This document shows, piece after piece, positions 9,227-54,154 of a DNA stretch of 56,867 bases. Location of the stretch: NCBI GenBank assembly GCA_031406795.1, contig JANOHV010000108.1, positions 1 to 56,867 of the forward strand. Direction: 5' to 3'. The notes under the pieces were generated by a model. The model saw only the letters and a program-made list of their open reading frames with translations. It searched no databases and was not told the DNA's origin. The position numbers were made by a program, and so were the translations under genes. Within the stretch, counting starts at the first letter, position 1. Every line of letters begins with the position of its first letter. Origin of the DNA: Candidatus Rokuibacteriota bacterium (GTDB lineage: Bacteria; JAUVQV01; DATDCY01).

Positions 9227-9265
9227 TTCGCGGCTTTGGGTGGGGGTCAGGGGGCAAGAGTGGCG

Positions 9266-21854: not shown

Positions 21855-21903
21855 CAAACAGATCCGTGAAACACGGTCCCGTTGCATCGGGTAGAATACG
21901 CGC

Positions 21904-32543: not shown

Positions 32544-32545
32544 GA

Positions 32546-33583: not shown

Positions 33584-33638
33584 GCATCCTCCTTGTCGTC
33601 GCAGTTGTGTTTAAAGTTGTTTCGTTCGACAAGAGTCC

Positions 33639-34586: not shown

Positions 34587-34746
34587 TCTGGCTCTCCTCG
34601 TTTCGAAGCTGGTGAACGATGCGGCCGTTGGTTGCGGCCGCTGAACAAGACCCGCGGGCAACCGCCGCCCCCGGGCCTTGTTCAGCAGCCTGTCCTGCCG
34701 CGCAAGGGGCCGGGGGAGGCCGCTCGCCCCCCCCGGCGCTGATGCT

Positions 34747-35187: not shown

Positions 35188-35332
35188 CGTTCGCTCCTTT
35201 GGTTTCCCGCCGGCCCCATGCCGCGCGGTTCGGGTGTTGTTCGTTTCGCCCGTACTGCCACGACTTTCACGACCCCTGGCAACACATCCGCTCCTGTGCC
35301 GCTCTCACCCCCATTCAAGAGGTTTCAGCCGG

Positions 35333-36376
35333 TTAGAGTTTCCACTCCAGCGCAACGTCGTGAAATTTCTTGAGGTTCTCGTAGGGGATCGTCGGCGGGA
35401 TGTCGCACCCCGGCACCAGAATGAAGCCGGGCGCCGACCCCGCCACCTCGATGACCTCGCGGCAGGCCTTCTCGACGCCGGCGGCGTCCTGGTTGAGCAG
35501 CACGTGCACGGGCGCGACGTTGCCGCCGAAGCTCATCTTCCCTTCGAGCGCCTCGCGCGCCTTGGCCATGTCCACCTTCTGGTCGAAGAAGATCGTGCTC
35601 GCCCCGGTTGCGGGGAACAGATCAAGTCGATCGCTCGTGTTGCCGCAGATGTGCAGGATCGAGTGGACGCCCTTGCCGCGGGCCCAGTCGGTCAGCTTCT
35701 TGAGACCCGGCACCGCGAAGCGCTCCATCTGCTTCTTGTTGATCAGGTCGCCGGAGGCCGTGGGGTCGGCGATGCTCAGGCACTCCACCCCGGCCTGCAC
35801 CAGCGGTTCGTAGACGTGGATCAGCAGGTCGGCGCAGAAATCGACCATCTTCTCGACGAAGGCCGGCTTTTTGAACGTCGCCTTCATGAAGGCTTCCTCG
35901 CCGACGAAGCGCGCCGCCAGCGTGAACGGGCCCCAGCAGGTCATCGTGACCAGATAGGTGTCCCCGATCTTCTTCTTCACGAGCTTGGTCGCCTCGAGCA
36001 CGGTCTGCACCACCGGGTCGCGAAGCACGTCGGCGATGTCCAGTTTCGCCAGGTCCTCTTCGTTGTTGACGAAATGCGAGGTCATGTCCGGGGCGCCCAT
36101 TTCGCGGTACTTGATGCCGACCCCGAACGCCTTACCGAGCGCCGACGCGTGGAAGTTGTTGTACCCCGAACCGACGTACACGACGTCGCTGCGGATGCGC
36201 GCCGCCTCGGCGACGCACATATCGGCCATCTTCTGCGGGTCGAGCGCCAGTGCCTCGAAGCTCGTGCCGTAGTCCTTGATCGACCACATCCCGGCCCCGA
36301 ACAGGGTCACCGGAATCCGGTCCGCCTTCTCGCACGCAAAAGCCTTGAGTATCACTTCCCTCGGTGTCATCGTCAT
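35333..36376 (-). CDS. UroD-fold (MtaA-like) corrinoid methyltransferase
   Basis: DRIPV, WGPFTLA, ADPTASGDLI, HICG, GNV.P, PGCD. Confidence 0.88.
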   Translation of the reverse strand: MTMTPREVILKAFACEKADRIPVTLFGAGMWSIKDYGTSFEALALDPQKMADMCVAEAARIRSDVVYVGSGYNNFHASALGKAFGVGIKYREMGAPDMTSHFVNNEEDLAKLDIADVLRDPVVQTVLEATKLVKKKIGDTYLVTMTCWGPFTLAARFVGEEAFMKATFKKPAFVEKMVDFCADLLIHVYEPLVQAGVECLSIADPTASGDLINKKQMERFAVPGLKKLTDWARGKGVHSILHICGNTSDRLDLFPATGASTIFFDQKVDMAKAREALEGKMSFGGNVAPVHVLLNQDAAGVEKACREVIEVAGSAPGFILVPGCDIPPTIPYENLKKFHDVALEWKL

Positions 36377-36411
36377 GCTGGTTCCCCCTTGGCGTCGGTG
36401 GTCGTCTGGCG

Positions 36412-36741
36412 TCAGGCTGCGATGTGCTGAATGATCTCTTTGATCGCGTCCAGGTCGACGGGCAGCCGGATCATCGGCGGATTGTCGCACGCCGCGCCCC
36501 CGCCGACGAAGAGAATGGGCATCTCGGGCGCGATGGTCTTGATGATGCGTGCGGCATCCTCCGCGGAGAGGCCGAACGGCTCCGCATCGACGATCATGAC
36601 ATCGTAGGTGCTGCCGAGGACCTTCTGCACGGCGAGGGCGGGGTGCTCGACGTCCTCGATGGCGTAACCCTCCTCCCGGAGCATGCCGTAGAGGCTCTTG
36701 ATCAGCAGCGGGTTCGATGAGCAGAGTATGATTTTCTTCAT
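36412..36741 (-). CDS. atypical stand-alone receiver-domain protein
   Basis: KKIILCS, YDVMIVD, PEMPILFV, LPVDL pattern; lacks the N-terminal acidic pair and the conserved Lys. Confidence 0.65.
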   Translation of the reverse strand: MKKIILCSSNPLLIKSLYGMLREEGYAIEDVEHPALAVQKVLGSTYDVMIVDAEPFGLSAEDAARIIKTIAPEMPILFVGGGAACDNPPMIRLPVDLDAIKEIIQHIAA

Positions 36742-36756
36742 CTGCTGCTGAACCAA

Positions 36757-36772
36757 TGCATGATCGGTGCCA
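36757..36772 (-). promoter_or_regulatory. sigma54 (-24/-12) promoter candidate for module 1
   Basis: TGGCACCGATCATGCA with correct GG-N10-GC spacing. Confidence 0.5.
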
Positions 36773-36993
36773 GACTGCGGAAGAGCACCCGTGCATCGCA
36801 AAAAGGCCTTCAAACGAGGACTTCATCGACCCGCGATGGCCCCGTCTTGGCTTGTCGGTCTTGAGAGGAGCGTTTGACCGGGCAGCAGAGGAGGGATATT
36901 GCCCCAGCGGCTGGGGAATTCCGCCTCACACCTCGATCGAACTGCCCGGCGGCGGGCGAGGAACTTCAGTTTCCTTTTTGCGCAGGGAAACTT

Positions 36994-37304: not shown

Positions 37305-39260
37305 CTATTCGATCTTCGGCTTCTCCTCCGGCAGTATGCCTTTCAGATGCGGAAATTTGTCGAACATATGGGGAAACTGCATCGATTCGCCGAACCGGTC
37401 GTTGAAGTCCTCCTCCAGCGCCAGTTCCACATACTCGACTTTGCGGGCGATGATATTGGCTTCCTTGCGCTCGTCGGTGCTGAGCAGGGCGATGCGGGCG
37501 CCGTCACCCGCGGCATTGCCGATATACTCGACCTTCTTGAGGTCGCAGTCGGGGAACATGCCGATCACCATGGCCGCCACCTTGTCGATGTGGCTCCCGA
37601 AGGCTCCGGCTATGGCCAGCCGGTCGAACTTCTTGATGCCGAGCTTGCGAAGCATGATCAGGCAACCGGAGTACAGAGCGCCCTTTGCGAGCTGAATCGC
37701 CCGGACGTCCTTCTGATTGACGACGATGTCCGCTTCGATTGCCGTCTCGTGCTTCCAGGCCAGAACGTATTCGCTCAGGCCCTTTTCGTTCTTCCTGATC
37801 CTCGGGGACTTCAGCTCGATGTCGATCTGCCCGTTCTTCTTCAGGATCCCCGCCAGGAACATGGCCGCGATCACGTCGATGATGGCCGAACCGCAGATGC
37901 CCTTGGCCTTCATGTTGACCTGGCCGTCGCTCCAGCGGTTGCTGCCGATGACCTTGTACTGCGGCTCGAGCGTCTTGGGGTCGATCTTCACGCGCTCGAT
38001 CGCCCCGGGGGCCGCGCGCATGCCGAATTCTATCTGCGCCCCCTCCAGTGCGGGTCCGGTTGCGCAGGAACAGGAGATGAGCTTGTCGCGGTTGCCCAGG
38101 ACCAGCTCGCCGTTCGTCCCGATGTCGATGAGCAGCGTCATTTCCTTGCGCTTGTGCGGCTTGTCCGCGATCAGGCACCCGACGTTGTCCGCCCCGACGA
38201 AGCCCGCTTCGATGGGCAGGACGTGGATGTTGCCGGCCGGCAGGATGTGAATGCCGAGCCGCTCCGCCTTGATGTCGACCGAGTGGTGCAGGGCCGGGGT
38301 GAACGGCGCCACGCCCATGTATTCGGGGTTGATGCCGAGCAGGATGTGGTGCATGGCGGTGTTGCAGACGAGGGTCATCTCGCTGATGTCATCCGTCGAG
38401 ATCCCGGCCTTGTGCGCGGCCTGCTTGGCGATCGTGTTGAGCCCCTCGACGATCGTGTCCTGGAGGTCCTTCAAGCCGGTCTCTTCGTTGAACATGCAGT
38501 AGGAAATCCGGGACATGACGTCTTCGCCGTAGCGAACCTGGGGGTTCATCATCGACTCGGTCACGATGACGTCGCCGGTGTTCAGGTCGGTCAGATAGCC
38601 GGCGACGGAGGTGGTGCCGATATCGACGGCCAGCCCGATATTGGTCTCGATCTTCCCGGGTTCGACCCGGATGATGTCCGCATTGTTCCAGACGGTGACC
38701 GTGACCTTCCAGTCGCTTTTTCTCAACACGTCGGGAAGCTTCTGGAGGGCCCGGTAGTCGATGGTCAACTTCTTCATTTTCGGGTTGTTTTCGTACAACA
38801 CCTTCTCGACGCGCTCGAAATCCCCGAGCGGGTCGTCGAGGTTGGGTTCGGGCAGCTCCACGTAATACTTCCGGACGGCGGGTTTCAGCTTGACCACGAT
38901 CTTGCCGGCGGCCTTGCTGACGACCTGTTTGCCGGTCCGGCTGGCCTCGGGGACGAAGACGAGCACGTCGCCCAGGATCTTCGTGCAGCAGGCCAGGCGG
39001 ACGTGCTCCTCGGCATCCTTGCGTTCCAGAACCTTGATCTCCTTCTCGTCGAGGCTGCTCAGATGCCCCATCGAGGAGGTGATGTCTTCCTTCTGGAACT
39101 TGCCTTCCATGATCTTGACCCGGCACTTGCCGCAGACGATCAGCTCGCCGCAGACCGCTTCGATGTCGACGCCCAATCTCCGGGCGGCGTCGAGGATCGT
39201 GGTCCCTTCCGGCACCAGCCCGCGCCTGCCGGATGGTTGAAATATGATGGTATGCTCCAT
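37305..39260 (-). CDS. RACo/ASKHA corrinoid reductive activator 2
   Basis: same motif set as activator 1 (CG....CGKC, VDIGTT, DIGTNGE, CATGPALEG, GICGS). Confidence 0.92.
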   Translation of the reverse strand: MEHTIIFQPSGRRGLVPEGTTILDAARRLGVDIEAVCGELIVCGKCRVKIMEGKFQKEDITSSMGHLSSLDEKEIKVLERKDAEEHVRLACCTKILGDVLVFVPEASRTGKQVVSKAAGKIVVKLKPAVRKYYVELPEPNLDDPLGDFERVEKVLYENNPKMKKLTIDYRALQKLPDVLRKSDWKVTVTVWNNADIIRVEPGKIETNIGLAVDIGTTSVAGYLTDLNTGDVIVTESMMNPQVRYGEDVMSRISYCMFNEETGLKDLQDTIVEGLNTIAKQAAHKAGISTDDISEMTLVCNTAMHHILLGINPEYMGVAPFTPALHHSVDIKAERLGIHILPAGNIHVLPIEAGFVGADNVGCLIADKPHKRKEMTLLIDIGTNGELVLGNRDKLISCSCATGPALEGAQIEFGMRAAPGAIERVKIDPKTLEPQYKVIGSNRWSDGQVNMKAKGICGSAIIDVIAAMFLAGILKKNGQIDIELKSPRIRKNEKGLSEYVLAWKHETAIEADIVVNQKDVRAIQLAKGALYSGCLIMLRKLGIKKFDRLAIAGAFGSHIDKVAAMVIGMFPDCDLKKVEYIGNAAGDGARIALLSTDERKEANIIARKVEYVELALEEDFNDRFGESMQFPHMFDKFPHLKGILPEEKPKIE

Positions 39261-39373: not shown

Positions 39374-40045
39374 CTAGGAGGCCATCTTCCCTTTCCGCAG
39401 CGCATCGAGCATCTTCATGGCCTCCTTGAGCGCATTGGGGGCATTGTCGGCGGTCGTGTCCGCACCGTACTCTTCGACCGTCTTCTCGGTGATCGGCGCG
39501 CCGCCGATCATGATCTTCACCTTCGGGTTCTTCTCCTTGATCATCGGGATGAGCTTCTTGATGCCGACCATGGAGGTCGTCATCATCGCGGAGAGCATCA
39601 CGATGTCGGAGTCGGTCTTGAGCTGCTCTTCCACGAACCGCTTCAGCGGCACATCCCGGCCGAGGTCATGGACCGTCCAGCCCGAGGCCTCGAAGATGGC
39701 CTTGATGATGTTCTTGCCGAGGTCATGCACGTCCCCCTGCATGACGCCGAGCACGACCTGCCCCCGTACTTCGCCGGCCTGCAACTTGATATGAGGCTTC
39801 AACACGTCGAGCGCCGCGTAGAGCGCCTTGGCGCAAAGCAGGGTCTCCGGGACGAAATACTCGTGACTGTCGAACTTCTGGCTGACGACCTCCATGCCCC
39901 CCGCCAGGCCTTCCATGGTGACGGTGTACGCGTCGGCGCCGGCGGCCACCGCTTCTTCGGCGATCTTCTTGGCGTCGGCGACCTTGTAATTGATGATCGC
40001 ATCCTGAAGCCGCTTGATCAGTTCCTTCTCTTTCTCAGTTGCCAT
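39374..40045 (-). CDS. methyltransferase cognate corrinoid protein 2
   Basis: EYFVPE, GDVHDLGKN, SAMMTTS, IGGAP. Confidence 0.93.
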   Translation of the reverse strand: MATEKEKELIKRLQDAIINYKVADAKKIAEEAVAAGADAYTVTMEGLAGGMEVVSQKFDSHEYFVPETLLCAKALYAALDVLKPHIKLQAGEVRGQVVLGVMQGDVHDLGKNIIKAIFEASGWTVHDLGRDVPLKRFVEEQLKTDSDIVMLSAMMTTSMVGIKKLIPMIKEKNPKVKIMIGGAPITEKTVEEYGADTTADNAPNALKEAMKMLDALRKGKMAS

Positions 40046-40071: not shown

Positions 40072-41133
40072 TTATTTCTTGTAGACGCCGTACTTCTTGC
40101 CCGCTTCGACAATCCTGCGGGCGTTGAGAAGGGGGGCGTTCGGCGGAAATTCGCAGCCCGTGGAGAGGATCAGGCCGCCACCCTTGGCGAAGATCTCGAT
40201 CTCCGCCTTGCACTCCTCCTCGATCTCGTCAGGGGTGCCGAGCATGGCAACCGGGGCGGGCGGGATCCAGCCGATCGTGGCGATCTTGCCGCCCCACTTC
40301 GCCTTATGTTCCTCCCAACTGTCAACGTCGTCCGCCACATAGGCGTGGGAGATTGCATGGGGGTTCGCCCACTTCTGCGACACGTCGAAGTAGATGCCGT
40401 TGCCGCAGTTGTGCAGCACGACCAGGCAGCCCTTGGCACGGATCGAATCGCAGAGCCGCTTGATCGACGGTCCTTCGAACTTTTCCCACATCTCCTTGCC
40501 GAGAATGCTCTGCGAGCAGTAGAGATGGTCGTAGCACACGGCGTGGGCGCCGGCTTCCGCCTGCGCCATGGCATAATCGAGCAGCGTCTCGTCCATCGCC
40601 TGGAGAGCCGGAAGCACGGCCTCCGGATTTTCGATCAGGTCCATGAAGAACTTGTCGGGACCCCGCATCATGCTCATGACGCCGAGCGAGCCGTAGACGA
40701 ACCCGACGATGGCGTGGGTCGTGCCGACCTCCTTGGAGATGCCGGCAATCATGTCGATGACGCTCTTCATCCGCTTGGTCTTGCGCGGGTTGATTCTCTT
40801 GATCTTCTTGTAGTCGTCAATGGTCTTGATATAGGGATTGTCGTAATTCGGGTGAGCGGTGTTCATCTCCGGGAAAAAGACTTCCTGGCCGAAGTCGGCG
40901 GCCTCGACCGAGAGATCCACCAGCGCGACGACGCCGTCGTGGCCGAGCAGCTTCAGCGCGTCGACGTGGCCGCGTACCATGTCGTTGACGTAATCGCCGG
41001 AAGACCACTCGCCGTAACTGATCCCCGCCACGCGGTGCGTTGCCCCGCAGACCAGCGGTGCCACCGGAACGCGGTCGCCTTCCTGGAACTGACAAGCCGT
41101 CGCAACTCTTTGCAGTCCGTTCATCTCATCCAT
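40072..41133 (-). CDS. UroD-fold corrinoid methyltransferase
   Basis: DRVPV, DLSVEAADFG, HNCG, STGCE. Confidence 0.88.
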   Translation of the reverse strand: MDEMNGLQRVATACQFQEGDRVPVAPLVCGATHRVAGISYGEWSSGDYVNDMVRGHVDALKLLGHDGVVALVDLSVEAADFGQEVFFPEMNTAHPNYDNPYIKTIDDYKKIKRINPRKTKRMKSVIDMIAGISKEVGTTHAIVGFVYGSLGVMSMMRGPDKFFMDLIENPEAVLPALQAMDETLLDYAMAQAEAGAHAVCYDHLYCSQSILGKEMWEKFEGPSIKRLCDSIRAKGCLVVLHNCGNGIYFDVSQKWANPHAISHAYVADDVDSWEEHKAKWGGKIATIGWIPPAPVAMLGTPDEIEEECKAEIEIFAKGGGLILSTGCEFPPNAPLLNARRIVEAGKKYGVYKK

Positions 41134-41185: not shown

Positions 41186-41860
41186 CTACTGGATCAACAG
41201 CAGGCCTGACCAGACAATCTCCGTCTTCGGCGGCATATCGAACGGCAAACCAGCATTCACGCAGGTCTGCAGAACGTCGATGCCGACGCCTTCCATCGAC
41301 GGTCTGGCTTCGAACGGTCGCCGACACCCTTCCTTGGCGCCGGGCCCAACACAGGTCGGACAGAGCATGCATTCGCCGCCGATGAGCCCGAGGGCAAACG
41401 GGAACCCGATCGACATGGCCTTGCTCTCAACTTCGTTCACGAGTTTGTGCAGCCGAACCGCAGCGATCTTCACATTACTGAAATCGGCTTGCGCACCTTC
41501 ACCCCCCTTCGCGTCCAACGACTTTGACGGGTTTATGAAAAACTTCTGTACCTCTTCCTTGTCGTACGTGTCGATCTCCCCACTGAGCGCGCTGCGCGTC
41601 TGGACCAGCAGCGCGGTCCGGTAGTTTCCGACCACTCTCCGGAACTCCTCGACGGTCGGCACGTGGGGCGGACAGGTGAGCGTCCGCCCGTAGTGCGGGC
41701 AGAGCGGTATCTGACATTTCATGCGCACCCGCTCGTCGATGGCCACGTCCGTCGCGGGAAAAAGCCGGGCGCGATAGGCGCCCTTCTCGCAGGCGAAGGC
41801 CTCGAGCTGTGCCAGCCGCTCCCGGCAGTCGGCGGTGTGCGCTTCGGCGGGCGTCTTCAT
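41186..41860 (-). CDS. DUF2284-like metal-binding protein
   Basis: RMKC...CPHYG..LTCPP, GGECMLCPTC, C..P..ARPSMEGVGID. Confidence 0.85.
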   Translation of the reverse strand: MKTPAEAHTADCRERLAQLEAFACEKGAYRARLFPATDVAIDERVRMKCQIPLCPHYGRTLTCPPHVPTVEEFRRVVGNYRTALLVQTRSALSGEIDTYDKEEVQKFFINPSKSLDAKGGEGAQADFSNVKIAAVRLHKLVNEVESKAMSIGFPFALGLIGGECMLCPTCVGPGAKEGCRRPFEARPSMEGVGIDVLQTCVNAGLPFDMPPKTEIVWSGLLLIQ

Positions 41861-41870: not shown

Positions 41871-42116
41871 TCATGCCCCCGCTTTTTTACCGCCGAAGAC
41901 GAAGACCTTCGGCTTGTGCTCGATCGCGTTGATCATGTTCTGCTCCAGCATGACCCGTTTCACCTTCCAGCAGACCGGACACATGTACCGGGATTTCAAC
42001 CCGCGATCCGGCCCGGTGTACCGCAACTCCATGTGATCCTTGCAGACCTTGGAGCCGCAATCCGGGCAGATGAAGACCGCCGCGCCGCCACACTGAAAAC
42101 ATCGTTCCATGGCCAT
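41871..42116 (-). CDS. small Zn-finger-like protein (about 80 aa)
   Basis: CxxC..CxxC..CxxH..CxxC; GGAAAGGA SD. Confidence 0.75.
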   Translation of the reverse strand: MAMERCFQCGGAAVFICPDCGSKVCKDHMELRYTGPDRGLKSRYMCPVCWKVKRVMLEQNMINAIEHKPKVFVFGGKKAGA

Positions 42117-42123: not shown

Positions 42124-44823
42124 CTAGGTGGTGAGTCGCTTGTAGATCAGCGGCAACCGCGCCGGCAGCGTCTCGATGTTGTCGATCAGCGTGTAATTGG
42201 ACTCGCCGTACATGTACGGCAGATAGTCGCGACTCTTCTTGTCGACCGTGATGCAAAAGGAATTCACCCCTTTGCGGCGGCCTTCCCACAAGGCCCGCCG
42301 GGTGTCCTCAACGGCGTAATCGGAGTCGCCGTAATCGATGTCGTACGGCCGGCCGTCGGAGAGCAGAATCAGCAGCCGGATGCGGGTCGGCCGCCGGGCG
42401 AGCACCCGGTTGGCATGCCGGATCGCCGCGCCGAGACGCGTCTGGGCGATCGGCCGGATGCTGTCGAACCGCGCTTTCGCCGGATTCCCGAAAGGCTCGT
42501 CAAAATCGCGGACGACGAAGAAATCCACCTTGTCGCGGTAGTTCGAGGAAAATCCGTAGACCGCCCACTGATCACCGATGCTCTCCAGGGCCTCGGCCAT
42601 CAGCACCATGCCTTCGCGTTCGATGTCGACGATCCGCTTGCCCGACGGGAGTTCGTCGCCGGTGGAGTAGCTCATGTCCAGCAGGAACGCCACCGAAACG
42701 TCGCGGAGGTTCTTCTCCCGCCTGATGTACACGCGGTCGGAGGGCGTGATACCCGCGTGATGTTCGACCACGGCCTCGATGACGGCGTTCAAATCGATGT
42801 CGTCCCCCCGCTCTTCCCTGAAGATGCGCTTGATGCGGTCGGGACGCAAGAGGCTGAAGTGCCGTCTGAGCTGACTGACCAGCCCGTAATTGTCGGCGAT
42901 GGTCTTTTGATAGAAGGCGGGCGAGGTCTCGGGCATGTCCATTTCCCGCACCCGGCACCAGTCTTTGCGGTAATCGTCGATCTTCAGGTCCCACTCGTCA
43001 TAGTAGACCGCTCGTCGACAGCGCTTTTCCGCATCCATCTCCGCCACGATATTCTGGAGCTGCTCGAAGAGTTCCGCCAGACGCTCGCCGTCCTCGATCT
43101 GCCAGAACAGTTCCTCGGAGTCGATGATCTCCGCCTCTTCGAGCTGTCGCAACCCGGCTTCCACCGTCTCCCGGGGCACTTCGGTCTTCTTCTCGCCGAA
43201 ACGCTCGATCATGTCCAGGACGAGTCTCGCCATGCCGGAACGGGTGCCGTCGACGAGGTCGTAGTCGATGATGCCCCGGTAAAAGAGCCGGTCCATCGCT
43301 TCGCGGCTCTCGCAAAGCTCGCAGGTGGACTCGCCCTCCAGCGACGCGCAAAGGCCGACGGTCAGATCGAGCACGTTCCTGACGGTGCACTCCGGCCGCA
43401 GCACCTGCGCCAGGGCCTCCTTCAGCAGCGGAGCGACCCGGCACCTCGCGGCCCCGGCGTCCGCGACCGCGGCGGTGTTCCGGAAGCTGAGGGACTCCAG
43501 CAGCGAGTGGTTGACCTCCCCCGTGGCCTGCGCCTGGGCGAGGAAGGCTTCCATGATGGTTTGCCGATCCTTCTCGAGGCCCGGGTAAGCCAGTCCGACG
43601 AGGAAGTCGACGCGTTCGTCCTCGAGGAACTCGAAGATCTTGTACGCCTGATTCGGATTGCTCAGACCGGACAGGCACGCCAGATCCTCTTTCCCGACGA
43701 TGAATGTGCCGTGGAGCAGGTGGCCCAGTTCGTGCGTCAGTATCCATTTGTAGGTCATGAAGTTGAGCTCTTCATCCCGAAAGGCCTCGATGCGGGACGG
43801 CAGGAAAATCCGTTCGCCGTCGGTGACGGAGAAGAACCGGCTCAGTCCCGGGAGATTCTTGTAGAAGATCGAGGATGAGCGCAGCAGCGGCTTCTTTCCC
43901 ACCAGCGCTTCGGCGTAGGCGCGAAGCACGCTATGGATGTCCTTCAGCTCCAGGCCCTTCACGAGTCCTTCGACGGCGGTTCTGCTGGAACTGGTCTGCA
44001 GCGAGAAAAACGCCGCGCCCCGGTCCTTGTGCGCATCCACCGTTTCCAGCCCCTTTTCCACCCACGCCTCGAGGTCGTTCATCGAAAGCCGGGCGAGAAT
44101 CTGGGGGGCGGACTTGAAATACTGCAGCGCCAGATCGATCTTCTTCGATTTGCCCGCGGCGGCCCCGGTCGCAAGCATGCTGTGCGCGTTGTGCCCCGCC
44201 TTGATCCTCGGGCTTTTCTCGAGCAGATGGATCCCCAGCCGCGCCCAGCGTTCGAGATCCCGCGCGTCGATCTTTCTGAAGACCTCGGGGCTGGACTTGA
44301 AGTATTCCTTGCCCGTCTTCCAGGACAGCCTGGCAATCTCCTCGCCGAACGCGGCCCAGTCGGCAAACCGCTCGGCGCCGATCGCCTGGATGACCGGAAT
44401 GCTCCCCTCGAGATATTGAAGCGCGACGTCCTTGTCGACATCGGCCAGGGCGTCTGCGGTTCTGAGCCACTCCGGGGCCAGGCCGGGGTACGCCGCAAGC
44501 AGGGGCAGTTTCGGGTACGCCGCCGCGACGACGCTCCATTTCGAGCGGCCCATCCTCAGCAGCAGACCGAGAATATCGCCGCGCTCTTCCCGGTTTCGCA
44601 GCGGCGCCAGCGTGGCACTGCCGGATTTCAACAGCAGCAGCGCCAGCGAGCGATCGAGGGAACTGAAGGAGTCCACCAGGAGCAGAAAACTCCTCGTCCC
44701 TTCCTCATCCAGAAGGGCGTCGAGGCCGCAGACCGACTCCGCAAGAAGATCGGCGCGGCCGAGCCTTCCGGCAACCGCCGTCGCCAGCTCCTGAACGGTC
44801 TGTCTTTGAGAAAGCACCGCCAT
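42124..44823 (-). CDS. NorD/CbbO-like VWA-domain protein (899 aa)
   Basis: YDEWD..DYR..W, GDDIDL, MIDAS LLDMSYST, TRLGAAIRHA, LSDGRPYD. Confidence 0.9.
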   Translation of the reverse strand: MAVLSQRQTVQELATAVAGRLGRADLLAESVCGLDALLDEEGTRSFLLLVDSFSSLDRSLALLLLKSGSATLAPLRNREERGDILGLLLRMGRSKWSVVAAAYPKLPLLAAYPGLAPEWLRTADALADVDKDVALQYLEGSIPVIQAIGAERFADWAAFGEEIARLSWKTGKEYFKSSPEVFRKIDARDLERWARLGIHLLEKSPRIKAGHNAHSMLATGAAAGKSKKIDLALQYFKSAPQILARLSMNDLEAWVEKGLETVDAHKDRGAAFFSLQTSSSRTAVEGLVKGLELKDIHSVLRAYAEALVGKKPLLRSSSIFYKNLPGLSRFFSVTDGERIFLPSRIEAFRDEELNFMTYKWILTHELGHLLHGTFIVGKEDLACLSGLSNPNQAYKIFEFLEDERVDFLVGLAYPGLEKDRQTIMEAFLAQAQATGEVNHSLLESLSFRNTAAVADAGAARCRVAPLLKEALAQVLRPECTVRNVLDLTVGLCASLEGESTCELCESREAMDRLFYRGIIDYDLVDGTRSGMARLVLDMIERFGEKKTEVPRETVEAGLRQLEEAEIIDSEELFWQIEDGERLAELFEQLQNIVAEMDAEKRCRRAVYYDEWDLKIDDYRKDWCRVREMDMPETSPAFYQKTIADNYGLVSQLRRHFSLLRPDRIKRIFREERGDDIDLNAVIEAVVEHHAGITPSDRVYIRREKNLRDVSVAFLLDMSYSTGDELPSGKRIVDIEREGMVLMAEALESIGDQWAVYGFSSNYRDKVDFFVVRDFDEPFGNPAKARFDSIRPIAQTRLGAAIRHANRVLARRPTRIRLLILLSDGRPYDIDYGDSDYAVEDTRRALWEGRRKGVNSFCITVDKKSRDYLPYMYGESNYTLIDNIETLPARLPLIYKRLTT

Positions 44824-45653
44824 CAGTGCACCGCGGCGACGATTTCCTTCAGGATCTTCTGGATCTCGAGATCATCCGTGATGGGCTTGATCAGCGCGAC
44901 TTCACAAGCCCTTCGCGGCGCGACACCCTGCTTGATCAGCACGCCGGCATAGATCAGCAGCCTCGTGCTCACGCCTTCGTCGAGGCCGCGGTCCTTGAGT
45001 CCCCTGAACTTCTCCGCGATCTTCCTCAGGTCAGCTGCGGACGTGCGGTCCACGCCGCTCTCGTGAACGATGATCTCCTCCTCGAGGCTCGCGGAGGGAT
45101 AGTCGAAGTCCAGCGTGATGAAGCGCTGCTTGGTGCTCTGCTTGAGGTCCTTGAGCACGGTCTGATACCCGGGATTGTAGGAAATGACGATCATGAACGA
45201 GTCCGAGGCCTCGAGGATCTGGCCGCGCTTTTCCAGGGGCAGGACCCGCCGGTCGTCGGTCAGGGGGTGGATGACGACCGTCGTGTCCTTTCTCGCCTCC
45301 ACAACCTCGTCGAGGTAGCAGATGCCGCCGTGCCGGACGGCCAGACTCAACGGTCCGTCCTGCCAGCGGGTACTCCCGCCGTCGAGGAGATAGCGGCCGA
45401 CCAGGTCGCTGGCGGTGAGGTCCTCGTGACAGGCGATGGTAATGAGCGGCAGGCCGGTCTTGTGCGCCATGTAGGAGAGGAATCTTGTCTTGCCGCACCC
45501 GGTCGGCCCCTTGAGCATGAGCGGCAGCTTGTTTTCGAACGCGAGCTGGAAGAGTTCCACTTCATCCTGGATCGGCAGATAGAAAGGCTCCTGCTCGATG
45601 CGGTAGTCCTGCATGTTGGCTTCGTGTGCAGGTTTCGTCTTCGTCTGTTTCAT
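44823..45653 (-). CDS. CbbQ/NirQ/NorQ-family MoxR AAA+ ATPase
   Basis: [49 protein letters not shown]. Confidence 0.95.
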
Positions 45654-45688: not shown

Positions 45689-46108
45689 TCAGTTCGTCCC
45701 GGAAGTTCTCACGAGACCGAACCGTTTGACCGTGGCGGCGACGGCCGTTTCCGTCGCTTCCTCGACAGCCGCGGCGGTCAGTCCGTAGATGACGGCATTC
45801 ACCACGAGGCTGAAGCCTGAGGCGGGCTCTCCGTCGCGTCCTTCAACCTTGACGTCGTTCGAATCGCCGACCGTGTCGGCGTGTAGAAACCCTGACGCGT
45901 GTTCAAGAAAGGCTTTGACGTGGCTCACGTCCTTCGCCCCGGCAGCGATGCTCGCCGAGGCGATCGCCGTCATCAGGGCCGCGGCGAACCGTCTCAGGTC
46001 GGCTGCGCCGACGGGTACCGCGGCCGTCACCCAACAGCGCAGCCCATGGCTGTTGATGCCGTCGTGGACGGGGTTCCCAATGCTGGTGTTGCCGCCAACC
46101 CCGGTCAC
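45689..46108 (-). CDS. hypothetical protein, probable partner of the CobW-like GTPase
   Basis: ATGA overlap with the GTPase; SHVKAF and VVNAVIY motifs. Confidence 0.7.
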
Positions 46109-46751: not shown

Positions 46752-47768
46752 CTAGACGTTCTTCAGGGTGCTCATCAGCGCATTCATGTTCTCTTCGGAC
46801 ACTTCCGGCCAGAGGTCGCAGCCGGGCCACACCGCGCTGGCGCCGTTCTTGAGCGAATCGAGCATCGCCGGGCCGACATCCTTCGCCTCGCCCTTGTGGA
46901 GCACCTTGATGGGGTCGAAATTGCCGAGGATGATCGCCTTGTCGCCGAGCTTCTGCCGCGTTTCGGCCAGGCGGTTCTTGTGGTCGACGCTCACCGCATC
47001 GGCACCGCATTCGGCCATATCGCCGATGATCGCGTTCGTGTCGCCGCAGATATGCAGGATGCTTGGTCTCGGCATCTCCGCCAGGATCCTGACCAGGTGC
47101 GGTTTGATCAGGCTTCGGAAGCTCTTCGGGCTCATGACGTCCGAGGTTCCGCCCATCTCTCTCAGCGTGAAATAGTCCGCGCCGGCTTCCTGATAGATCT
47201 TGGCAATCCTGACGATGATTTCTGAAAGCCGTTCGAGCAACCTGCCGGTCTCCTCCGGGTTGAGGAACGATTCCTCGAACAGCGTGTCAAGCTCCTTCAC
47301 CTGACCGGCAAGCGTGAACGGACCCAGCAGGTAGGTCCCGATCGCCACGTCGTTGCCCAGGTCCCGTCGCAGGGCCTTGATCGCAGCCGTGACCACGGGG
47401 ATCCTGCCGGCATTCTTCAGGTCGGCGGGGATTTTTACGTCGTCCGCGGTGACGATGGGCTTCACGTTGATCGTCGGATAGAGCAGGCCTTCGACCTCGT
47501 CATAGTAGTTCATCTTCGCGCCAAGCGCTTCCGCCTCGACGCCGAGATCAAACGGAACCACGGCGCATTCAAAGCCAAACTGCCGATACATGCCGCCGGC
47601 CGCCGCGGCCATCAGCTCCGGGTCGCGGTGCACCCGCGAGAAGACGATGTTGTTCTTGTCCAGGACGGGTTTGATGACATTCCCCATGCCGCTGAAGATC
47701 GGCGGCCGGTCCACTTTCTCCCCGTTGAGAAACTTCATCACTCTCTCGCGCGCGGTCATCGTCGCCAT
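46752..47768 (-). CDS. MtaA/CmuA-family methyltransferase (paralog of 32546-33583)
   Basis: FSGMGNV, PFDLGVEAEALG, GPFTLAG, HICG, WPGCD. Confidence 0.9.
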   Translation of the reverse strand: MATMTARERVMKFLNGEKVDRPPIFSGMGNVIKPVLDKNNIVFSRVHRDPELMAAAAGGMYRQFGFECAVVPFDLGVEAEALGAKMNYYDEVEGLLYPTINVKPIVTADDVKIPADLKNAGRIPVVTAAIKALRRDLGNDVAIGTYLLGPFTLAGQVKELDTLFEESFLNPEETGRLLERLSEIIVRIAKIYQEAGADYFTLREMGGTSDVMSPKSFRSLIKPHLVRILAEMPRPSILHICGDTNAIIGDMAECGADAVSVDHKNRLAETRQKLGDKAIILGNFDPIKVLHKGEAKDVGPAMLDSLKNGASAVWPGCDLWPEVSEENMNALMSTLKNV

Positions 47769-47907: not shown

Positions 47908-48924
47908 TCAGCTCTCGTCGGCGGCTTCGAGAAAAATTTCCACGTTCTGTCGCGGCGTGTCGACCGGCAGGTCGCAGGAGGGCATCAGAATGTACCTCAG
48001 GCGCGGGTCGGCGACCTGACGGACGCACGCCGCGACCCCGCGGCGGATCGCCGCCCCGCCGCCGCGTGCGAGGAGCGCGACCGCATCGACATTGCCGGCG
48101 GTGACGGTCGATCCGCGGTAAAGATCGTACGCCTCCTCGATGCCGACGCTGCAGTCGACCGAGATGCAGTCGGCCCGGGCTTCGAGATACCGGGGAAGCT
48201 GATGCCGGATCTGTCCGCACATGTGCAGGATCGAGCGGACGCCGCGACTGCGGACGTGGTCGAAGAGCTCGCGCTGCCAGGGCAGAACGAGTTCCTGGTA
48301 GGACTCGTCGGGTATCAGCGTCACCGCGCCGTCCGGCACCGAGATGCCGTCGATCAGGCCGCGGTCGATCAGTCGGTCGAAATAGCCGGCCGCGAGCTGC
48401 GCCCCCAGCGCCGCGACCGCACTGACGAACGGCGGATCGGCGGTCAGCTTCTCCCGCAGCAGGTTCGGTTCGCAGAGGATCATGCCCCAGGAGAGTGGAC
48501 CCCACGAGGTTGCGCAGAGGAAGCGATCCGGGAGGTTGGCCCGCACCCCTTCGATCACCCGGACGAGGGCGTCGGTGGCCGGCGAGGGCAGCGGGGCGGC
48601 CGCTTCGGCCCGCACGAGATCCGCCGTCGAGCGGATCAGCGGGCGCTCGAGCAGCGGAGCTCTCCGGCCGTCGAAGCGCAAATCGCCGCCGATCGACTGC
48701 GCCGGGAAAGAGTTGAGCCCGGACCCGACGAAAAGCAGGTCGGTGTCGAGCCCGTCGTAGATCGCGGACAGCGCGTCGACGAACCGCCCGGGATAGTCCG
48801 GCAATTCCGCGGGGAGCAGCCCCGCCTGGGCGAAGGCCCAGAGCCCCCCGCCGAAGATCGCGCGCGGCAGACGCTCCTGCCGCAAACCGTCGAACGCTCC
48901 GGCGATCAACCCCCGGCGATCCAT
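47908..48924 (-). CDS. divergent UroD-fold methyltransferase-like protein (related to 35333-36376)
   Basis: FGGGLW, FVGSGLNSF, WGP, HMCG, GNVD, PSCD. Confidence 0.82.
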   Translation of the reverse strand: MDRRGLIAGAFDGLRQERLPRAIFGGGLWAFAQAGLLPAELPDYPGRFVDALSAIYDGLDTDLLFVGSGLNSFPAQSIGGDLRFDGRRAPLLERPLIRSTADLVRAEAAAPLPSPATDALVRVIEGVRANLPDRFLCATSWGPLSWGMILCEPNLLREKLTADPPFVSAVAALGAQLAAGYFDRLIDRGLIDGISVPDGAVTLIPDESYQELVLPWQRELFDHVRSRGVRSILHMCGQIRHQLPRYLEARADCISVDCSVGIEEAYDLYRGSTVTAGNVDAVALLARGGGAAIRRGVAACVRQVADPRLRYILMPSCDLPVDTPRQNVEIFLEAADES

Positions 48925-48965: not shown

Positions 48966-49613
48966 CTAGAGCGAGGTCAGACCTTCACGGATCGCGTACT
49001 TGGTCAGTGCCGCGATGCTGTGGATGTCGAGCTTCGTCATGATGTGCATCCGGTGCGTTTCGACCGTCTTGACGCTGACATTCAAGTGGGCCGCGACTTC
49101 CTTGGTCGTCTTTCCTTCGGCCATCAGCTGGAGAACTTCCCGCTCGCGGTCGGAGAGGAGCGAGAATACAGAAGCATCGGTTTTCGCGCCTTTCCTGATG
49201 TAATCCTCCAACACGACCCCGGCGATGCCGGGGCTGAGATAGATCTTGCCCTTGGCGATCGTCCTGATCGCCGTGATGAGTTCCTCGAAAGCACAGTCTT
49301 TCAGCAGGTAGCCGGATGCGCCGGCCTTGAGCATCTCGGAGACGTACCTCTTGTCAGAATGCATGGACAACGCCACGACTTTGACCCCCTGCGCTTCCGC
49401 GAGGATCTGCCGGGTCGCCTCGATGCCGTTGAGCTCGGGCATGGCAATATCCATGACCACCACGTCCGGGGAAAGCGCCCGGGCCAGCTGCAGAGCTTCC
49501 CTCCCGTCTTCCGCCTCGCCGACGACCAGGATGTCCGGGTCTTTTTCGAGCAGGTTACGGAGCCCGTCTCTGACGATCTTGTGATCGTCGGCCAGCAGTA
49601 TCCTCAGCTTCAC
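48966..49613 (-). CDS. NarL/LuxR-family response regulator
   Basis: ILLADDH, VVMDIAMP, GYLLK, LSDREREVLQL..G HTH. Confidence 0.95.
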   Translation of the reverse strand: MKLRILLADDHKIVRDGLRNLLEKDPDILVVGEAEDGREALQLARALSPDVVVMDIAMPELNGIEATRQILAEAQGVKVVALSMHSDKRYVSEMLKAGASGYLLKDCAFEELITAIRTIAKGKIYLSPGIAGVVLEDYIRKGAKTDASVFSLLSDREREVLQLMAEGKTTKEVAAHLNVSVKTVETHRMHIMTKLDIHSIAALTKYAIREGLTSL

Positions 49614-51946
49614 GGGGCGTTCTCCTGCGTCGGCGTGGCTGTCGGAGCCAGCGGGGAGGTGACCGTGATCCGCGTGCCCCCGCCCGGGGAGGCCTGGATC
49701 TCGAGATTTCCGCCGAGATATTTGAGTCTTTCCCGGATGCTGAAGAAGCCGTACGTGATGCGATCGCCGATGGCCGTGGTGTCGAAGCCGATGCCGTCGT
49801 CCTCGACCGTGATGAGCAGCCGTGTTCCTTCCCGGCGAAGCTGGGTGAGCACCTGATGCGCCTGGGAGTGCTTGACGATATTCATGTACAGCTCGCGGAC
49901 CACCTGAAACAGCAGGATGCTCATCTCCCGGGTCAGGGGTTTGGGCTGCCGGTCGTTGTCGCAGGAGAACAGGATGTAATGCTGCTTCTGCGTCTGTTCG
50001 GAGAGCCATTCGACCGCCGCCTCGAATCCGAGTTCGTAGAGAATGGGGGGACTCAGCTCGAAGGTCAACGACTTGGTGTACCTGATGGTCTTCTCGATCA
50101 GCGCCCGGATTTCGTCGATCGGCTCGGTATGTCCGCGGTCGCAGGAGTCTTTGAGCGCCCCGAGCCTGATCTTGGTGATCGCCAGCGTCTGGCCGATGTG
50201 GTCGTGGATCTGCGTGGCGATGCGGCGTCGTTCACTCTCTTCGGCGAGCGAGAGTTCGGAGGTCAAAGCGCGCAGCTGCTCCTGATAGAGCTTGAATTTC
50301 TCCTCGGCCCGTTTGCGCTCCGTGATGTCCCGTTGAATCGAGACGAAATGCGAGACTTTGCGCCTCTCGTCCCGCAGGGGGGTAATCTGCCACTCGACGT
50401 CGAAACGGCTGCCGTCCTTGCGATAGGCGGCGGTCTCGAGATAGAAGGCCTTGACGTCGGCCGAGCCGGCCTCGAACTTCGTCCAGACCATGCCTTCGGG
50501 TTCCGGGCCCTGGAGGATCAGCGAGGGCTTCCCGAGGACCTCGTCGGGCGTGTAGCCCGTCATCTTCGTGAAAGCGGCGTTCACGAACACGATCTTGGCC
50601 GCCGGACGCGCGGGGTTCGCGGTCGTGATGACGATCGAGTCCCTGGCCTGCTGGATGGCGGCCTGGAGCAGCTGAAGCATCTCCTCGGCGCGCTTCCTCT
50701 CGGTGACATTGTTGAAGAATTCGAGCGAGGCGGGCCGGCCCATCCAGGTCATCAGCACGGAGTTGACCTCAAGCCACCTGACGGTCTTCTCCCGGTCGAT
50801 GATCCGGCACAGATAGAAGTGCGGCAAGCTGTCCCCGCGCAGGCGCCGCAGGTGCCGCTCCCGGACGAAATCCCGGTCGTCCGGGTGGATGAAGTCGGTG
50901 AATGGCTGCGATTGCAGCTCTTCGGGCGTACAGCCGAAGATCTTGGCCGCCTTGGGATTCGCGTACTTGAAGTAGTCATCCTGGGTGACGACGATACCTT
51001 CATTCGCGTGTTCGACGACCATCCGGTATTTCTCTTCGGAGACCCTGACGATCTGTTCGGTCCATTTGCGCTCGCCGATCTCCTGCTGCAGTTCCTCGTT
51101 CGCGCGGGTCAGCTGTTTCGTCCTGATCCGGACCTCCGACTCGAGGTGGGCGCGGCACTCTTCCAGAAGCTTCTCGTGTTTCTTCTGTTCCGTGCAGTCA
51201 TTGCCGATGCAGAGGATTTCGCCGACGCTGATGCCATCCCGGAAGAGCGCCCGATTGGTCCAGGCGATCCAGGCCCGCTCGCCGCCCTTGCGGATGCTCT
51301 CGTCCTCGAGGTTTTCGTACGGCTCCGGGTGCTTCTCGATCTCCTGGTACATCAACCCGAGCTTGCGCTCGCGCTCTGCCGATTCAGGGAAGATCGTGCC
51401 GAGCACATTTCTGCCGACGATCTCCTCCTCCGCATAGCCGAAAAACTTCTGCGCGAACGAATTGAGAAAAAGGATGGTGCCGGCCATGTCGATGCGCATG
51501 ATGATGCTGTTGGCGCTCTCGACGAGTTCGCGATACTTCGCCTCGCTCGCCCTGAGGGCGCTGCGGGCCTGCTTCTGGTTGGTGATGTCCTCAACCGTGC
51601 AGATCATGCCGTCGTAGTGCCCGGCCTTCACCTTCGGGATGAGCCAGCCCGACTGGAAGGTCTGCCGGCCCGCGGGCGTCACTACGGGGACTTCGGCGTA
51701 ATGCACCGGCTTCAGCGTCTCCTTGGCCTCAAGGTAATGGAGGTTGAAAGCCTTCGCCGCCAGCTCGGCGGCCTTGCTGAAGACCCGCGAGCCGATCAGC
51801 CGCTGCTGGGTCACGCCGGCAATCATCTCCATCGCCCGATTGGCGTAGCGGATCACGTCATCCCGGTCGGCCGCCCAGACGCCGGAGGTGATGCCGTTCA
51901 TGATGCTCTCGTACAGTTCCCTGCTGATCTGGGGCGCGTTACCCAT
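49610..51946 (-). CDS. cytoplasmic multi-PAS histidine kinase (HisKA_3)
   Basis: four PAS units, ERRRIATQIHDHIGQ H-box, NIVKHS, DDGIGF; no TM segment. Confidence 0.92.
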   Translation of the reverse strand: MGNAPQISRELYESIMNGITSGVWAADRDDVIRYANRAMEMIAGVTQQRLIGSRVFSKAAELAAKAFNLHYLEAKETLKPVHYAEVPVVTPAGRQTFQSGWLIPKVKAGHYDGMICTVEDITNQKQARSALRASEAKYRELVESANSIIMRIDMAGTILFLNSFAQKFFGYAEEEIVGRNVLGTIFPESAERERKLGLMYQEIEKHPEPYENLEDESIRKGGERAWIAWTNRALFRDGISVGEILCIGNDCTEQKKHEKLLEECRAHLESEVRIRTKQLTRANEELQQEIGERKWTEQIVRVSEEKYRMVVEHANEGIVVTQDDYFKYANPKAAKIFGCTPEELQSQPFTDFIHPDDRDFVRERHLRRLRGDSLPHFYLCRIIDREKTVRWLEVNSVLMTWMGRPASLEFFNNVTERKRAEEMLQLLQAAIQQARDSIVITTANPARPAAKIVFVNAAFTKMTGYTPDEVLGKPSLILQGPEPEGMVWTKFEAGSADVKAFYLETAAYRKDGSRFDVEWQITPLRDERRKVSHFVSIQRDITERKRAEEKFKLYQEQLRALTSELSLAEESERRRIATQIHDHIGQTLAITKIRLGALKDSCDRGHTEPIDEIRALIEKTIRYTKSLTFELSPPILYELGFEAAVEWLSEQTQKQHYILFSCDNDRQPKPLTREMSILLFQVVRELYMNIVKHSQAHQVLTQLRREGTRLLITVEDDGIGFDTTAIGDRITYGFFSIRERLKYLGGNLEIQASPGGGTRITVTSPLAPTATPTQENAP

Positions 51947-52208
51947 GGCTGCGAATTCCTTGCCACGTTCGGAGCGCCCCGGCGCAGAAGAAGTCCTCTG
52001 CCTTTCTATACGAGCTCGACAGCAGCGGGGGGTTGCCCACCTTCATGGCGATCATAGTATACGAAATGCTGCGAAATGCCGCCCGCCGTTCGCAACCCGC
52101 CTCTTACCACAGTTTCCCGGCCGACACCATGATGCGAATCATGCCGCTTTGACGGATTTGAGTTATGTTGTTCGCGGGAGATGTCGTACAGGCGAAAAAG
52201 GGGGCACC

Positions 52209-54128: not shown

Positions 54129-54154
54129 CCACGTTCGACGGTTCGGTGGCGGCA

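Follow-up and report, generated by a model that had tools for sequence, protein, structure and literature searches.

The CbbQO chaperone releases inhibitors from the active site of Rubisco through a contact between the MIDAS (metal-ion-dependent adhesion site) of CbbO and an acidic Rubisco residue. CbbQO has been described as a Rubisco activase (PMC4660213, PMC5437159), and NorQD opens the cytochrome c-dependent NO reductase (cNOR) for iron insertion (PMC13036017). The coupling of NorD to NorQ was resolved by electron cryo-microscopy in 2026, with a finger placed in the pore, the C-terminus lying on the post-sensor-1 loop, and the linker being stretched (PMC13036017). In the aerobic cobaltochelatase, as set out in part of a recent preprint, CobST drives the insertion of cobalt by CobN, CobW supplies the metal, and the N-domain of CobT docks on the small AAA+ subdomain (preprint 10.64898/2026.10.09.757910). 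Here, a pair of related proteins is described from a 56,867-nt stretch of DNA of a Candidatus Rokuibacteriota bacterium (assembly GCA_031406795.1, contig JANOHV010000108.1, positions 1 to 56,867 of the forward strand; hereafter the window), namely a CbbQ/NorQ-type MoxR AAA+ ATPase (the motor) and an 899-aa NorD-like VWA protein (the adaptor), whose genes lie in an operon for cobamide-dependent methyl transfer.

The methyltransferase clusters closest to this operon are the type 1 mlp clusters, in which at least two MtaA-like methyltransferases (Mlps) bearing a His-Cys-Cys site are encoded together with one corrinoid protein and a bacterial-type RACE/RACo activase, and which lack a tetrahydrofolate methyltransferase (PMC10418091). 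Such clusters have been linked to methyl-sulfur and methyl-selenide metabolism, with the sdm genes of Methanococcus voltae and the methylation of selenide by ClMlp2 as examples (Kountz and Balskus, PMC10418091). Furthermore, in the part of the comparative study of COG0523 proteins considered here, subfamily 13 was reported to co-localise with zinc-dependent corrinoid methyltransferases and their activase (Haas et al., 2009, PMC2770081). No description of a MoxR-VWA pair in an mlp-type or corrinoid methyltransferase cluster was found in a search of the literature, and a preprint on the anaerobic dichloromethane (mec) system contains no VWA, AAA, CobW, MoxR, or NorD term. The occurrence of such a pair in an mlp-type operon thus appears to be new, and its sequence context points to a new client for this chaperone family.

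The ten genes of the operon are all co-oriented on the minus strand, with spacings ranging from a 4-nt overlap to a 113-nt gap, and follow the order MtaA-like methyltransferase, CobW-like GTPase, orf139, CbbQ, VWA adaptor, zinc-ribbon protein (orf81), DUF2284 protein, second MtaA-like methyltransferase, corrinoid protein, and RACo. The core has the composition of a type 1 mlp cluster, and the MtrH-family gene of the window (33639-34880) belongs to a separate, downstream set. Six accessory genes—those for the CobW-like GTPase, orf139, CbbQ, the adaptor, the zinc-ribbon protein, and the DUF2284 protein—appear to form one unit, which seems to interrupt an mlp-type core whose genes encode the two MtaA-like His-Cys-Cys methyltransferases, the corrinoid protein, and RACo. 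The reading tentatively preferred here, at somewhat less than even confidence, is that the pair is dedicated to the corrinoid/zinc methyltransferase system of its own operon, not to NO reductase or Rubisco, and that it would carry out the ATP-driven insertion or restoration of a zinc centre. An earlier note, made from the letters and translations of the window alone, had described an intact MoxR ATPase, an 899-aa MIDAS-VWA partner with repeated helical units in its N-terminal region, a 1-nt overlap of their genes, a co-oriented position between MtaA-like/CobW and Zn-finger/DUF2284/methyltransferase/corrinoid/RACo genes, and an absence of norBC, nirS, and cbbLS; these observations were all borne out, the gene order by Pfam and NCBIfam and the others by the results that follow.

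By its sequence, the motor is a member of the CbbQ/NorQ subfamily of MoxR AAA+ ATPases. Its matches to the Pfam families AAA_5 (PF07728; 112.6 bits, E 1.9e-32) and CbbQ_C (PF08406; 104.2 bits, E 4.3e-30) both lie above the cut-off, and the Walker A (GPTGCGKT) and Walker B (ICYLDEV) motifs are both intact in the translation. Among solved structures, it scored 376.7 bits with CbbQ 5c3c (over residues 12-272) and 359.1 bits with CbbQ 6l1q, and 340.6 and 332.8 bits with NorQ 9qh4 and 9qhd, respectively. No NCBIfam equivalog was reached by the motor, the top model being GvpN (67.7 bits; cut-off 266.8). An identification as CobS was rejected, TIGR01650 having given 16 bits against a cut-off of 558.55 and solved CobS 23.3 bits. 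On the minus strand, the stop codon (TGA) of the motor gene and the start codon (ATG) of the adaptor gene share one base, in the context ...CAC TGATG GCG....

The Pfam matches of the adaptor, to VWA_2 (24.8 bits) and VWA (20.7 bits), are weak and both below the cut-off. With a family profile, residues 587-889 were aligned to residues 344-643 of NorD (9qhd_G, E 3.5e-61), and with the AlphaFold2 model of the adaptor (47-sequence alignment; mean pLDDT, the per-residue model confidence, 83.5) the best PDB matches found by Foldseek were the VWA chains of NorD (E 1.3e-17), followed by the MIDAS domains of Rea1/MDN1. The layout of this model agrees with that of a second model, of residues 1-600 (pLDDT 84.4). 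The MIDAS residues D716, S718, S720, and D823 are each present in 71 of 71 adaptor relatives and T795 in 69 of these, and the finger hairpin residues Y608, E610, and W611 are invariant in the same 71. The elements of NorD that couple it to its motor, namely the finger, the C-terminus, and the linker, are thus all matched in the adaptor; because all of them are conserved, the adaptor likely forms, by analogy with NorD, a finger-in-pore complex with CbbQ that remodels a client.

The part of the adaptor that precedes the finger has fewer counterparts. Three repeats were located in its N-terminal region, at YLEGSIPVI (Y137), YFKSSPEVF (Y174), and YFKSAPQIL (Y235); residues 117-192 could be aligned to residues 193-290 by self-comparison (BLASTP E 8e-6 and 0.007), and the repeat region was modelled as helical, with pLDDT mostly above 90. 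A fold search with residues 1-600 gave no PDB match at E <= 0.001, with only designed helical repeats and TAL effectors appearing, and a profile of the same residues found no NorD chain at E <= 10, the solved NorD chains resolving little of their N-terminal domain. Over the N-terminal 586 residues, only an insignificant stretch of 28 residues aligns with solved NorD.

The middle domain of the adaptor carries an HExxH motif (H364, E365, H368) and an E401-D402-x-R404-x-D406 motif. HExxH is found in 31 of 31 operon-linked adaptors; across the 71 relatives, H364 and H368 are each present in 68, and E401 and R404 in all. In the 40 adaptors of the Chloroflexota type, each His is kept in 37, and E365 is replaced by Gln in 38. 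Since these adaptors retain both His residues and exchange the catalytic Glu for Gln, it would be metal binding rather than catalysis that is conserved, and the motif resembles a triad that binds metal more than the active site of a peptidase.

A protein search with the adaptor yielded 187 proteins at E <= 0.001, the best 120 of which are 50-100% identical to it (the window protein being first) and mostly about 900 aa long, with a few shorter fragments; those of the 120 that carry a name come from uncultured organisms, and 15 bear, from their sources, the name NorD or NO reductase activation protein. After clustering of the library at 50% identity, one representative (1176 bits) stands for the whole family, with the next protein at 446 bits. 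Among 185,579 species genomes scanned, 79 loci were obtained, of which 35 are close (50-88% identity) and 44 distant (26-45% over the best segment). By label, the close loci are from Nitrospirota-type genomes (25), Nitrospinota (6), Desulfobacterota (3), and an unclassified genome (1), and the gene order, as determined by tblastn with the window proteins, is identical in all 35. Counting for each gene only the close loci that extend far enough, CbbQ (directly upstream of the VWA gene), orf139, the CobW-like GTPase, and the upstream methyltransferase were each found in 30/30, and, on the downstream side, orf81 was found in 34/34, DUF2284 in 32/32, the downstream methyltransferase in 30/30, the corrinoid protein in 27/27, and RACo in 25/25.

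When the last 310 residues of the adaptor (74 rows) were placed in a maximum-likelihood tree, the 32 operon-linked rows, including that of the window, formed a single branch (support 100/99), within which the Nitrospinota- and Desulfobacterota-labelled adaptors nest among Nitrospirota rows. One row (L029) has a branch length of 10, an artefact of a truncated locus whose residues are not the C-terminus, and was ignored. The pair belongs to a distinct, monophyletic, and strictly syntenic clade of CbbQ/NorQ-NorD-like chaperones. In loci L013 (labelled Nitrospina sp.) and L032 (labelled Desulfobacteraceae UBA2156), as also in L009, the C-termini of the adaptors are identical and the gene maps agree, which indicates that either the binning labels conflict or the operon was transferred very recently. 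A DUF1638 protein is a recurrent downstream neighbour of RACo, seen in 14 of the 35 close loci (e.g., L023:19807-20394; Pfam E 3.4e-31); no counterpart was recognised in the window.

The 44 distant loci are mostly from Dehalococcoidia/Chloroflexota, and a CbbQ gene lies upstream of the adaptor gene in 38 of them. Relatives of the URO-D, corrinoid, RACo, CobW, DUF2284, orf81, and orf139 proteins were found in none of the 44, where the recurrent neighbours are dephospho-CoA kinase (29 loci), CinA (20), a NUDIX protein (16), and assorted housekeeping genes. The Chloroflexota loci (L036-L079) hold a sister pair, CbbQ with a NorD-like adaptor of 1070-1110 aa in which H-Q-x-x-H replaces HExxH, and have no obvious client.

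No match to the NorB/NorC, NirS, RuBisCO, or CobN families was obtained among the 70 window ORFs (open reading frames) scanned (25 + 45; within 1-29 kb, those of at least 150 aa). Likewise, the gene families that recur beside the adaptor genes in the 79 loci include no Rubisco/carboxysome, nor, nir, or cbb family, and no nor or cbb gene lies within 10 kb in any locus, as judged from recurrent gene families and locus maps. Neither being encoded with norCB(Q), a hallmark of NorD, nor a cbbQ gene beside Rubisco/carboxysome genes, a hallmark of CbbO, was observed here. The neighbourhood survey places the close homologues with the methyltransferase operon, and neither the 35 close nor the 44 distant loci have nor or cbb genes among their recurrent neighbours, an arrangement that the earlier note had named as part of what would refute its proposal; that proposal, of a CbbQ/NorQ ATPase and a NorD/CbbO-like partner with a new client, gains support from the synteny and from the missing nor and cbb genes. 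Because the synteny is strict, an operon product is likely to be the client.

The proteins encoded around the pair are listed with their positions in the table. Both methyltransferases of the conserved operon have an invariant His-Cys-Cys zinc signature (H239, C241, and C317 in the upstream one; H241, C243, and C327 in the downstream one), and all four URO-D paralogues in the window retain the MtaA-type H-x-C...C zinc signature upon alignment to solved MtaA. Full-length relatives of the downstream methyltransferase, about 50% identical, occur in Clostridium ljungdahlii (98% coverage), C. kluyveri, Acetobacterium, and Heliobacterium; the 50%-identical C. ljungdahlii relative was the match considered for orthology to the Mlp2 and Mlp3 clades of mlp clusters. 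The CobW-like GTPase starts at M97 of a long ORF, contains the CxCC-type metal motif GGGCICCQ, and is without the C-terminal domain of CobW; its top NCBIfam model, a CobW-related selenoprotein (113.5 bits), is below the cut-off, and no NCBIfam equivalog was reached. The orf81 gene starts 7 nt after the VWA gene. No solved relative of the DUF2284 protein was found; its best NCBIfam matches are selenoproteins. Selenocysteine read-through in this gene was rejected, no in-frame TGA being present in the short copies of L024 and L026, and the L024 copy represents a frame change or a shorter linker. The RACo activase gave an AcsV-like match of 514 bits, below the cut-off.

For orf139, no Pfam family was matched by more than one of 21 members (best E 0.0085), a PDB profile search gave 0 matches, and Atlas returned only hypothetical proteins. 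An identification as the split-off C-terminal domain of CobW was not supported: Pfam, the PDB, and Atlas gave nothing for it and, as weak evidence, no fused forms of greater length were found; the only remaining hint of it is an (Asp-His)n run at the N-terminus of the L022 copy. This copy (L022:8657-9109) opens with a long run that resembles the His-rich stretches of metallochaperones, and in the copies of L021, L023, and L031 the C-terminal tail is acidic and contains His.

Upstream of the operon, the kinase and the regulator are each present in 15 of the 35 close loci. The extra URO-D paralogue has no counterpart at its position in the other locus maps. No Rfam family was found in the window, and hence no cobalamin riboswitch, and a promoter/terminator scan of 36.5-52.5 kb gave nothing above shuffled sequence.

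Table. Features of the methyltransferase operon and its surroundings in the window, with the layout of the adaptor in residues.
Feature	Position	Strand	Basis and remarks
CbbQ/NorQ-type MoxR AAA+ ATPase (motor), 276 aa	44823-45653	-	Pfam AAA_5 and CbbQ_C; scores to solved structures
NorD-like adaptor, 899 aa	42124-44823	-	Profile match to NorD; AF2 (AlphaFold2) model; Foldseek
Adaptor, helical repeats	residues ~1-310		AF2 models
Adaptor, mixed alpha/beta middle domain	residues 313-500		AF2 models
Adaptor, long linker helices	residues 521-600		AF2 model
Adaptor, beta-hairpin finger	residues 602-629		AF2 model
Adaptor, MIDAS VWA domain	residues ~705-899		AF2 model
MtaA-like URO-D-family methyltransferase (upstream)	46752-47768	-	NF004889, 249.3 bits (cut-off 244); 152.8 bits to MtaA 4ay7
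CobW-like G3E (COG0523-type) GTPase domain, ~205 aa	46105-46722	-	Pfam cobW PF02492, 124.5 bits, E 4.6e-36
orf139, conserved, no known family	45689-46108	-	Invariant H15, H63, K65, G81, N104
orf81, 81-aa Cys-rich zinc-ribbon/B-box-like protein	41871-42116	-	Weak B-box match, E 0.0045
DUF2284 predicted metal-binding, Cys-rich protein	41186-41860	-	Pfam DUF2284, E 5.2e-43
Second MtaA/CmuA-family methyltransferase (downstream)	40072-41133	-	Pfam URO-D, E 1.7e-50
Corrinoid protein, B12-binding_2 and B12-binding	39374-40045	-	DxHxxG motif GDVHDLG; true start M57 of long ORF
RACo-type reductive activase of corrinoid proteins	37305-39260	-	Pfam Fer2 and RACo linker, middle, and C-terminal domains
Extra URO-D-family paralogue	47908-48924	-	Pfam URO-D, E 4.6e-35; H-x-C...C retained; between regulator and conserved operon
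PAS histidine kinase and LuxR-type response regulator	48966-51946	-	Pfam; upstream of operon; listed ORFs overlap, true starts internal
CooS-type Ni-CO dehydrogenase catalytic subunit	51888-54128	+	TIGR01702, 628.9 bits (cut-off 478); N-terminal extension of ~120 aa

The theme shared by the accessory genes is metal handling, as seen in the CxCC motif of the GTPase, the His residues of orf139, the zinc ribbon, the Cys-rich DUF2284 protein, and the H-x3-H...E site of the adaptor. Since the accessory genes share this theme and both methyltransferases are zinc enzymes, the best guess for the role of the pair is the insertion or restoration of the zinc centre of a methyltransferase. By analogy with the solved NorQD complex, the beta-hairpin finger of the adaptor would sit in the pore of a CbbQ hexamer and the C-terminus of the adaptor would touch the ring, with the client held by the MIDAS face and the N-terminal part of the adaptor. 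ATP hydrolysis would then twist and stretch the adaptor linker and so open the client—most likely at the zinc site of one of the operon methyltransferases—such that a metal centre could be put in place or a blocked one freed. The CobW-like GTPase would deliver the metal, possibly through the H-x3-H...E site of the adaptor. A more specific version, itself unlikely, is that the six accessory genes together constitute a GTP/ATP-driven "methyltransferase activase" that re-metallates or unblocks the zinc-thiolate sites of corrinoid methyltransferases; sulfide- or selenide-type substrates would be the ligands able to strip or poison the zinc, and the H-x3-H...E site would be the hand-over station from the CobW-like GTPase to the client.

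Several points weigh against a zinc-centre role for the pair. Zinc sites of this type usually load unaided. The Chloroflexota adaptors have the same overall architecture, including most of the N-terminal repeats (matches start from residue 53); because they are found in loci without methyltransferase genes, the N-terminal region of the adaptor is not unique to the methyltransferase context. Related mlp operons apparently work without a MoxR-VWA module: the text of the mlp-cluster paper names no AAA+, VWA, or CobW gene, and VWA, von Willebrand, AAA, CobW, MoxR, DUF2284, ATPase, GTPase, and chaperone do not occur in it as terms (PMC10418091). In addition, according to the part of an aquifer survey considered here, NorBC is prevalent in Thermodesulfovibrionia, so that a distant Nor client is conceivable (PMC11033732).

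Pairwise distances across the operon proteins, compared for 21 loci and the window (231 pairs), also weigh against such a role. The N-terminal and middle parts of the adaptor diverge fast (mean pairwise distances of 0.48 and 0.53), and sequence conservation is seen in the methyltransferases and the corrinoid protein (0.16-0.26); overall, the accessory proteins have changed about twice as fast as the core (0.34-0.55 versus 0.16-0.26). The distances of the adaptor N-terminus track best those of orf139 (r 0.81), DUF2284 (0.77), and the CobW-like GTPase (0.75), with lower values for the methyltransferases (0.59 and 0.69), the corrinoid protein (0.58), and RACo (0.59). This pattern may mean that the adaptor N-terminus contacts the accessory proteins and not the enzymes, or it may reflect only rate classes, a confounder of the comparison.

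Foremost among the alternatives, though unlikely in itself, is a role in cobamide loading or exchange. The client would be the corrinoid protein, the apo- or damaged-cofactor form of which would be opened by the motor so that a cobamide with a buried nucleotide tail could enter or be replaced, and the CobW-like GTPase would gate the process like MeaB. MeaB plays this gating role for methylmalonyl-CoA mutase. Consistent with such a client, the corrinoid protein, with its DxHxxG motif, is present in every one of the 27 loci in which it could be scored, and three weak, convergent hints liken the adaptor middle domain to the N-domain of CobT: an Atlas lead (0.94) to a cluster of which 79% is annotated CobT, a Pfam CobT match in 1 of 28 adaptor-family members (E 4.6e-4), and a match to solved CobT (21vu_H, E 0.025) over the E-D-x-R-V-D motif. 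Cobalamin biosynthesis genes are also present in the window, those for CbiJ/CobK (precorrin-6x reductase) and a tetrapyrrole methylase (TP_methylase) lying at 54711-56743 (-), near both of its cobamide-using gene sets. However, the Pfam MeaB match of the GTPase spans the P-loop only, and its CxCC motif is of the COG0523 metal type; the motor is not CobS-like by the scores given above; the distances of the corrinoid protein correlate least of all with those of the adaptor N-terminus; and the known clients of MoxR-VWA pairs, in the portion of the literature covered, are catalytic metalloenzymes and not carriers.

Rather less probable is that the pair acts directly on a different metalloprotein of the accessory set or the vicinity, either the DUF2284 protein, for example for the assembly of a metal or Fe-S site, or the CooS-type CO dehydrogenase (CODH). 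The constant presence of DUF2284 in the close loci and the tracking of its distances with those of the adaptor N-terminus would fit the former. As to the latter, the earlier note had offered a nearby CODH-like protein as a possible client; its identity was upheld, and it is of the CooS type, but as a client it is the weaker option, adjoining the operon, besides in the window, in only 6 of the 35 close loci (L001, L003, and L033, where it is upstream, and L006, L015, and L023, where it is downstream). It is missing from seven loci whose flanks extend the full 10 kb on either side (L004, L007, L008, L014, L016, L017, and L030), and the maturation of Ni-CODH relies on CooC-type ATPases. In the window, the CooS gene is divergent from the kinase/regulator/methyltransferase operon. 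A 683-aa frame at 52104-54155 (-) was rejected as a gene, being a shadow of CooS on the plus strand; in this window of 62-70% GC, long antisense frames are common (e.g., one of 589 aa opposite the adaptor), and ORF lists alone mislead.

It is quite improbable that the adaptor is an active zinc metallopeptidase to which the motor feeds or positions a protein for processing or degradation, as in the turnover of inactivated methyltransferase components. The HExxH motif of the operon-linked adaptors, a possible third ligand in E401 about 33 residues downstream, and an Atlas lead (0.94) to a "Peptidase M48 fragment" cluster would speak for it; but the Gln that stands for the catalytic Glu in the Chloroflexota adaptors does not fit, no Pfam peptidase family was matched, and the PDB search with residues 1-600 of the adaptor returned no peptidase fold. 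A true NorQD or CbbQO that serves a NorBC or Rubisco encoded elsewhere, its place in the operon being incidental, is very improbable as well, even with the NorD-type names of 15 of the 120 listed homologues and the NorBC reported from Thermodesulfovibrionia: the position is identical in every informative locus under three phylum labels, the adaptor clade is distinct and its N-terminal 586 residues are without detectable similarity to solved NorD, and the 10-kb surroundings of the loci, as judged from recurrent gene families and locus maps, hold no nor or cbb gene. A part in a MoxR-VWA type conflict or anti-phage system can be set aside as extremely unlikely, for the matches of the motor to IetA/IteA models (28.2 and 25.9 bits) are weak and at the P-loop level, spanning about 50 residues around it, and the gene context is metabolic; PADLOC gave no match for the adaptor, orf139, orf81, or DUF2284.

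Elsewhere in the window, a second corrinoid methyltransferase set at 29156-36826 (-) is without a MoxR-VWA pair and encodes a RACo, a 4Fe-4S protein, a CMD-family protein, a 497-aa URO-D protein, a corrinoid protein of 508 aa that is extended N-terminally by 280 aa, and an MtrH-family methyltransferase (NF002142, 320.5 bits). A DUF3786 protein (21882-22874, +) has an N-terminal Fe-S motif like that of the gamma subunit of acetyl-CoA decarbonylase/synthase. A 1304-aa frame (5388-9302, -) joins Mfd/TRCF helicase domains to a C-terminal match to GRDB (glycine reductase selenoprotein B) and may be two genes.

If a methyltransferase-system client were to be confirmed, it would constitute a third client class for CbbQ/NorQ chaperones beside Rubisco and NO reductase, and, apart from the RACo/RamA reductive activases, corrinoid methyltransferase systems would have in the pair their first maturation or repair factor that is driven by ATP; the pair is of relevance to both chaperone biology and the enzymology of cobamide-dependent methyl transfer. 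Were the activase version to hold, the metal insertion of NorQD and the clearing of inhibited active sites by CbbQO would be merged and extended to cobamide-dependent methyl transfer. The ten-gene operon offers a compact and defined list of client candidates. Annotation is a further concern, since sources label such genes norQ or norD. In the part of a survey of aquifer Nitrospirota considered here, norD and norQ were "universally present" in a family without norB, and a novel mechanism of NO reduction was considered (PMC11033732); if these genes belong to the operon-linked clade, they would be uninformative on nitrogen cycling. Furthermore, the sister group of Chloroflexota beside housekeeping genes indicates that orphan CbbQ/NorD-like pairs are widespread.

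Among the known systems, NorQ/NorD, which inserts FeB into cNOR (9qh4-9qhg), agrees with the present pair in the adaptor's finger, MIDAS, and LPxIY+xL motif at the C-terminal end; however, the adaptor here is about 250 residues longer, with the HExxH/E-D-x-R domain and the N-terminal helical repeats, and has no nor genes nearby. CbbQ is the best solved relative of the motor, and the adaptor resembles CbbO as a long VWA protein whose N-terminal region is extensive, but Rubisco/carboxysome genes are absent here. The set of CobW and CobS/CobT/CobN finds a matching trio in the COG0523 GTPase, the MoxR AAA+ ATPase, and the VWA adaptor, although the motor is not CobS, the scanned window ORFs include no CobN, and the genes around the pair serve the use of cobamide, not the synthesis of the corrin ring. 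The CobW-like GTPase, like COG0523 subfamily 13, is encoded beside zinc-dependent corrinoid methyltransferase genes and an activase; unlike in that subfamily, it is without the C-terminal domain and is followed by orf139 and the MoxR-VWA pair. Finally, in contrast to type 1 mlp clusters, for which a lack of conserved synteny was noted (PMC10418091), the present operon is strictly syntenic and holds six accessory genes, including the MoxR-VWA pair, that are absent from the main text of that report.

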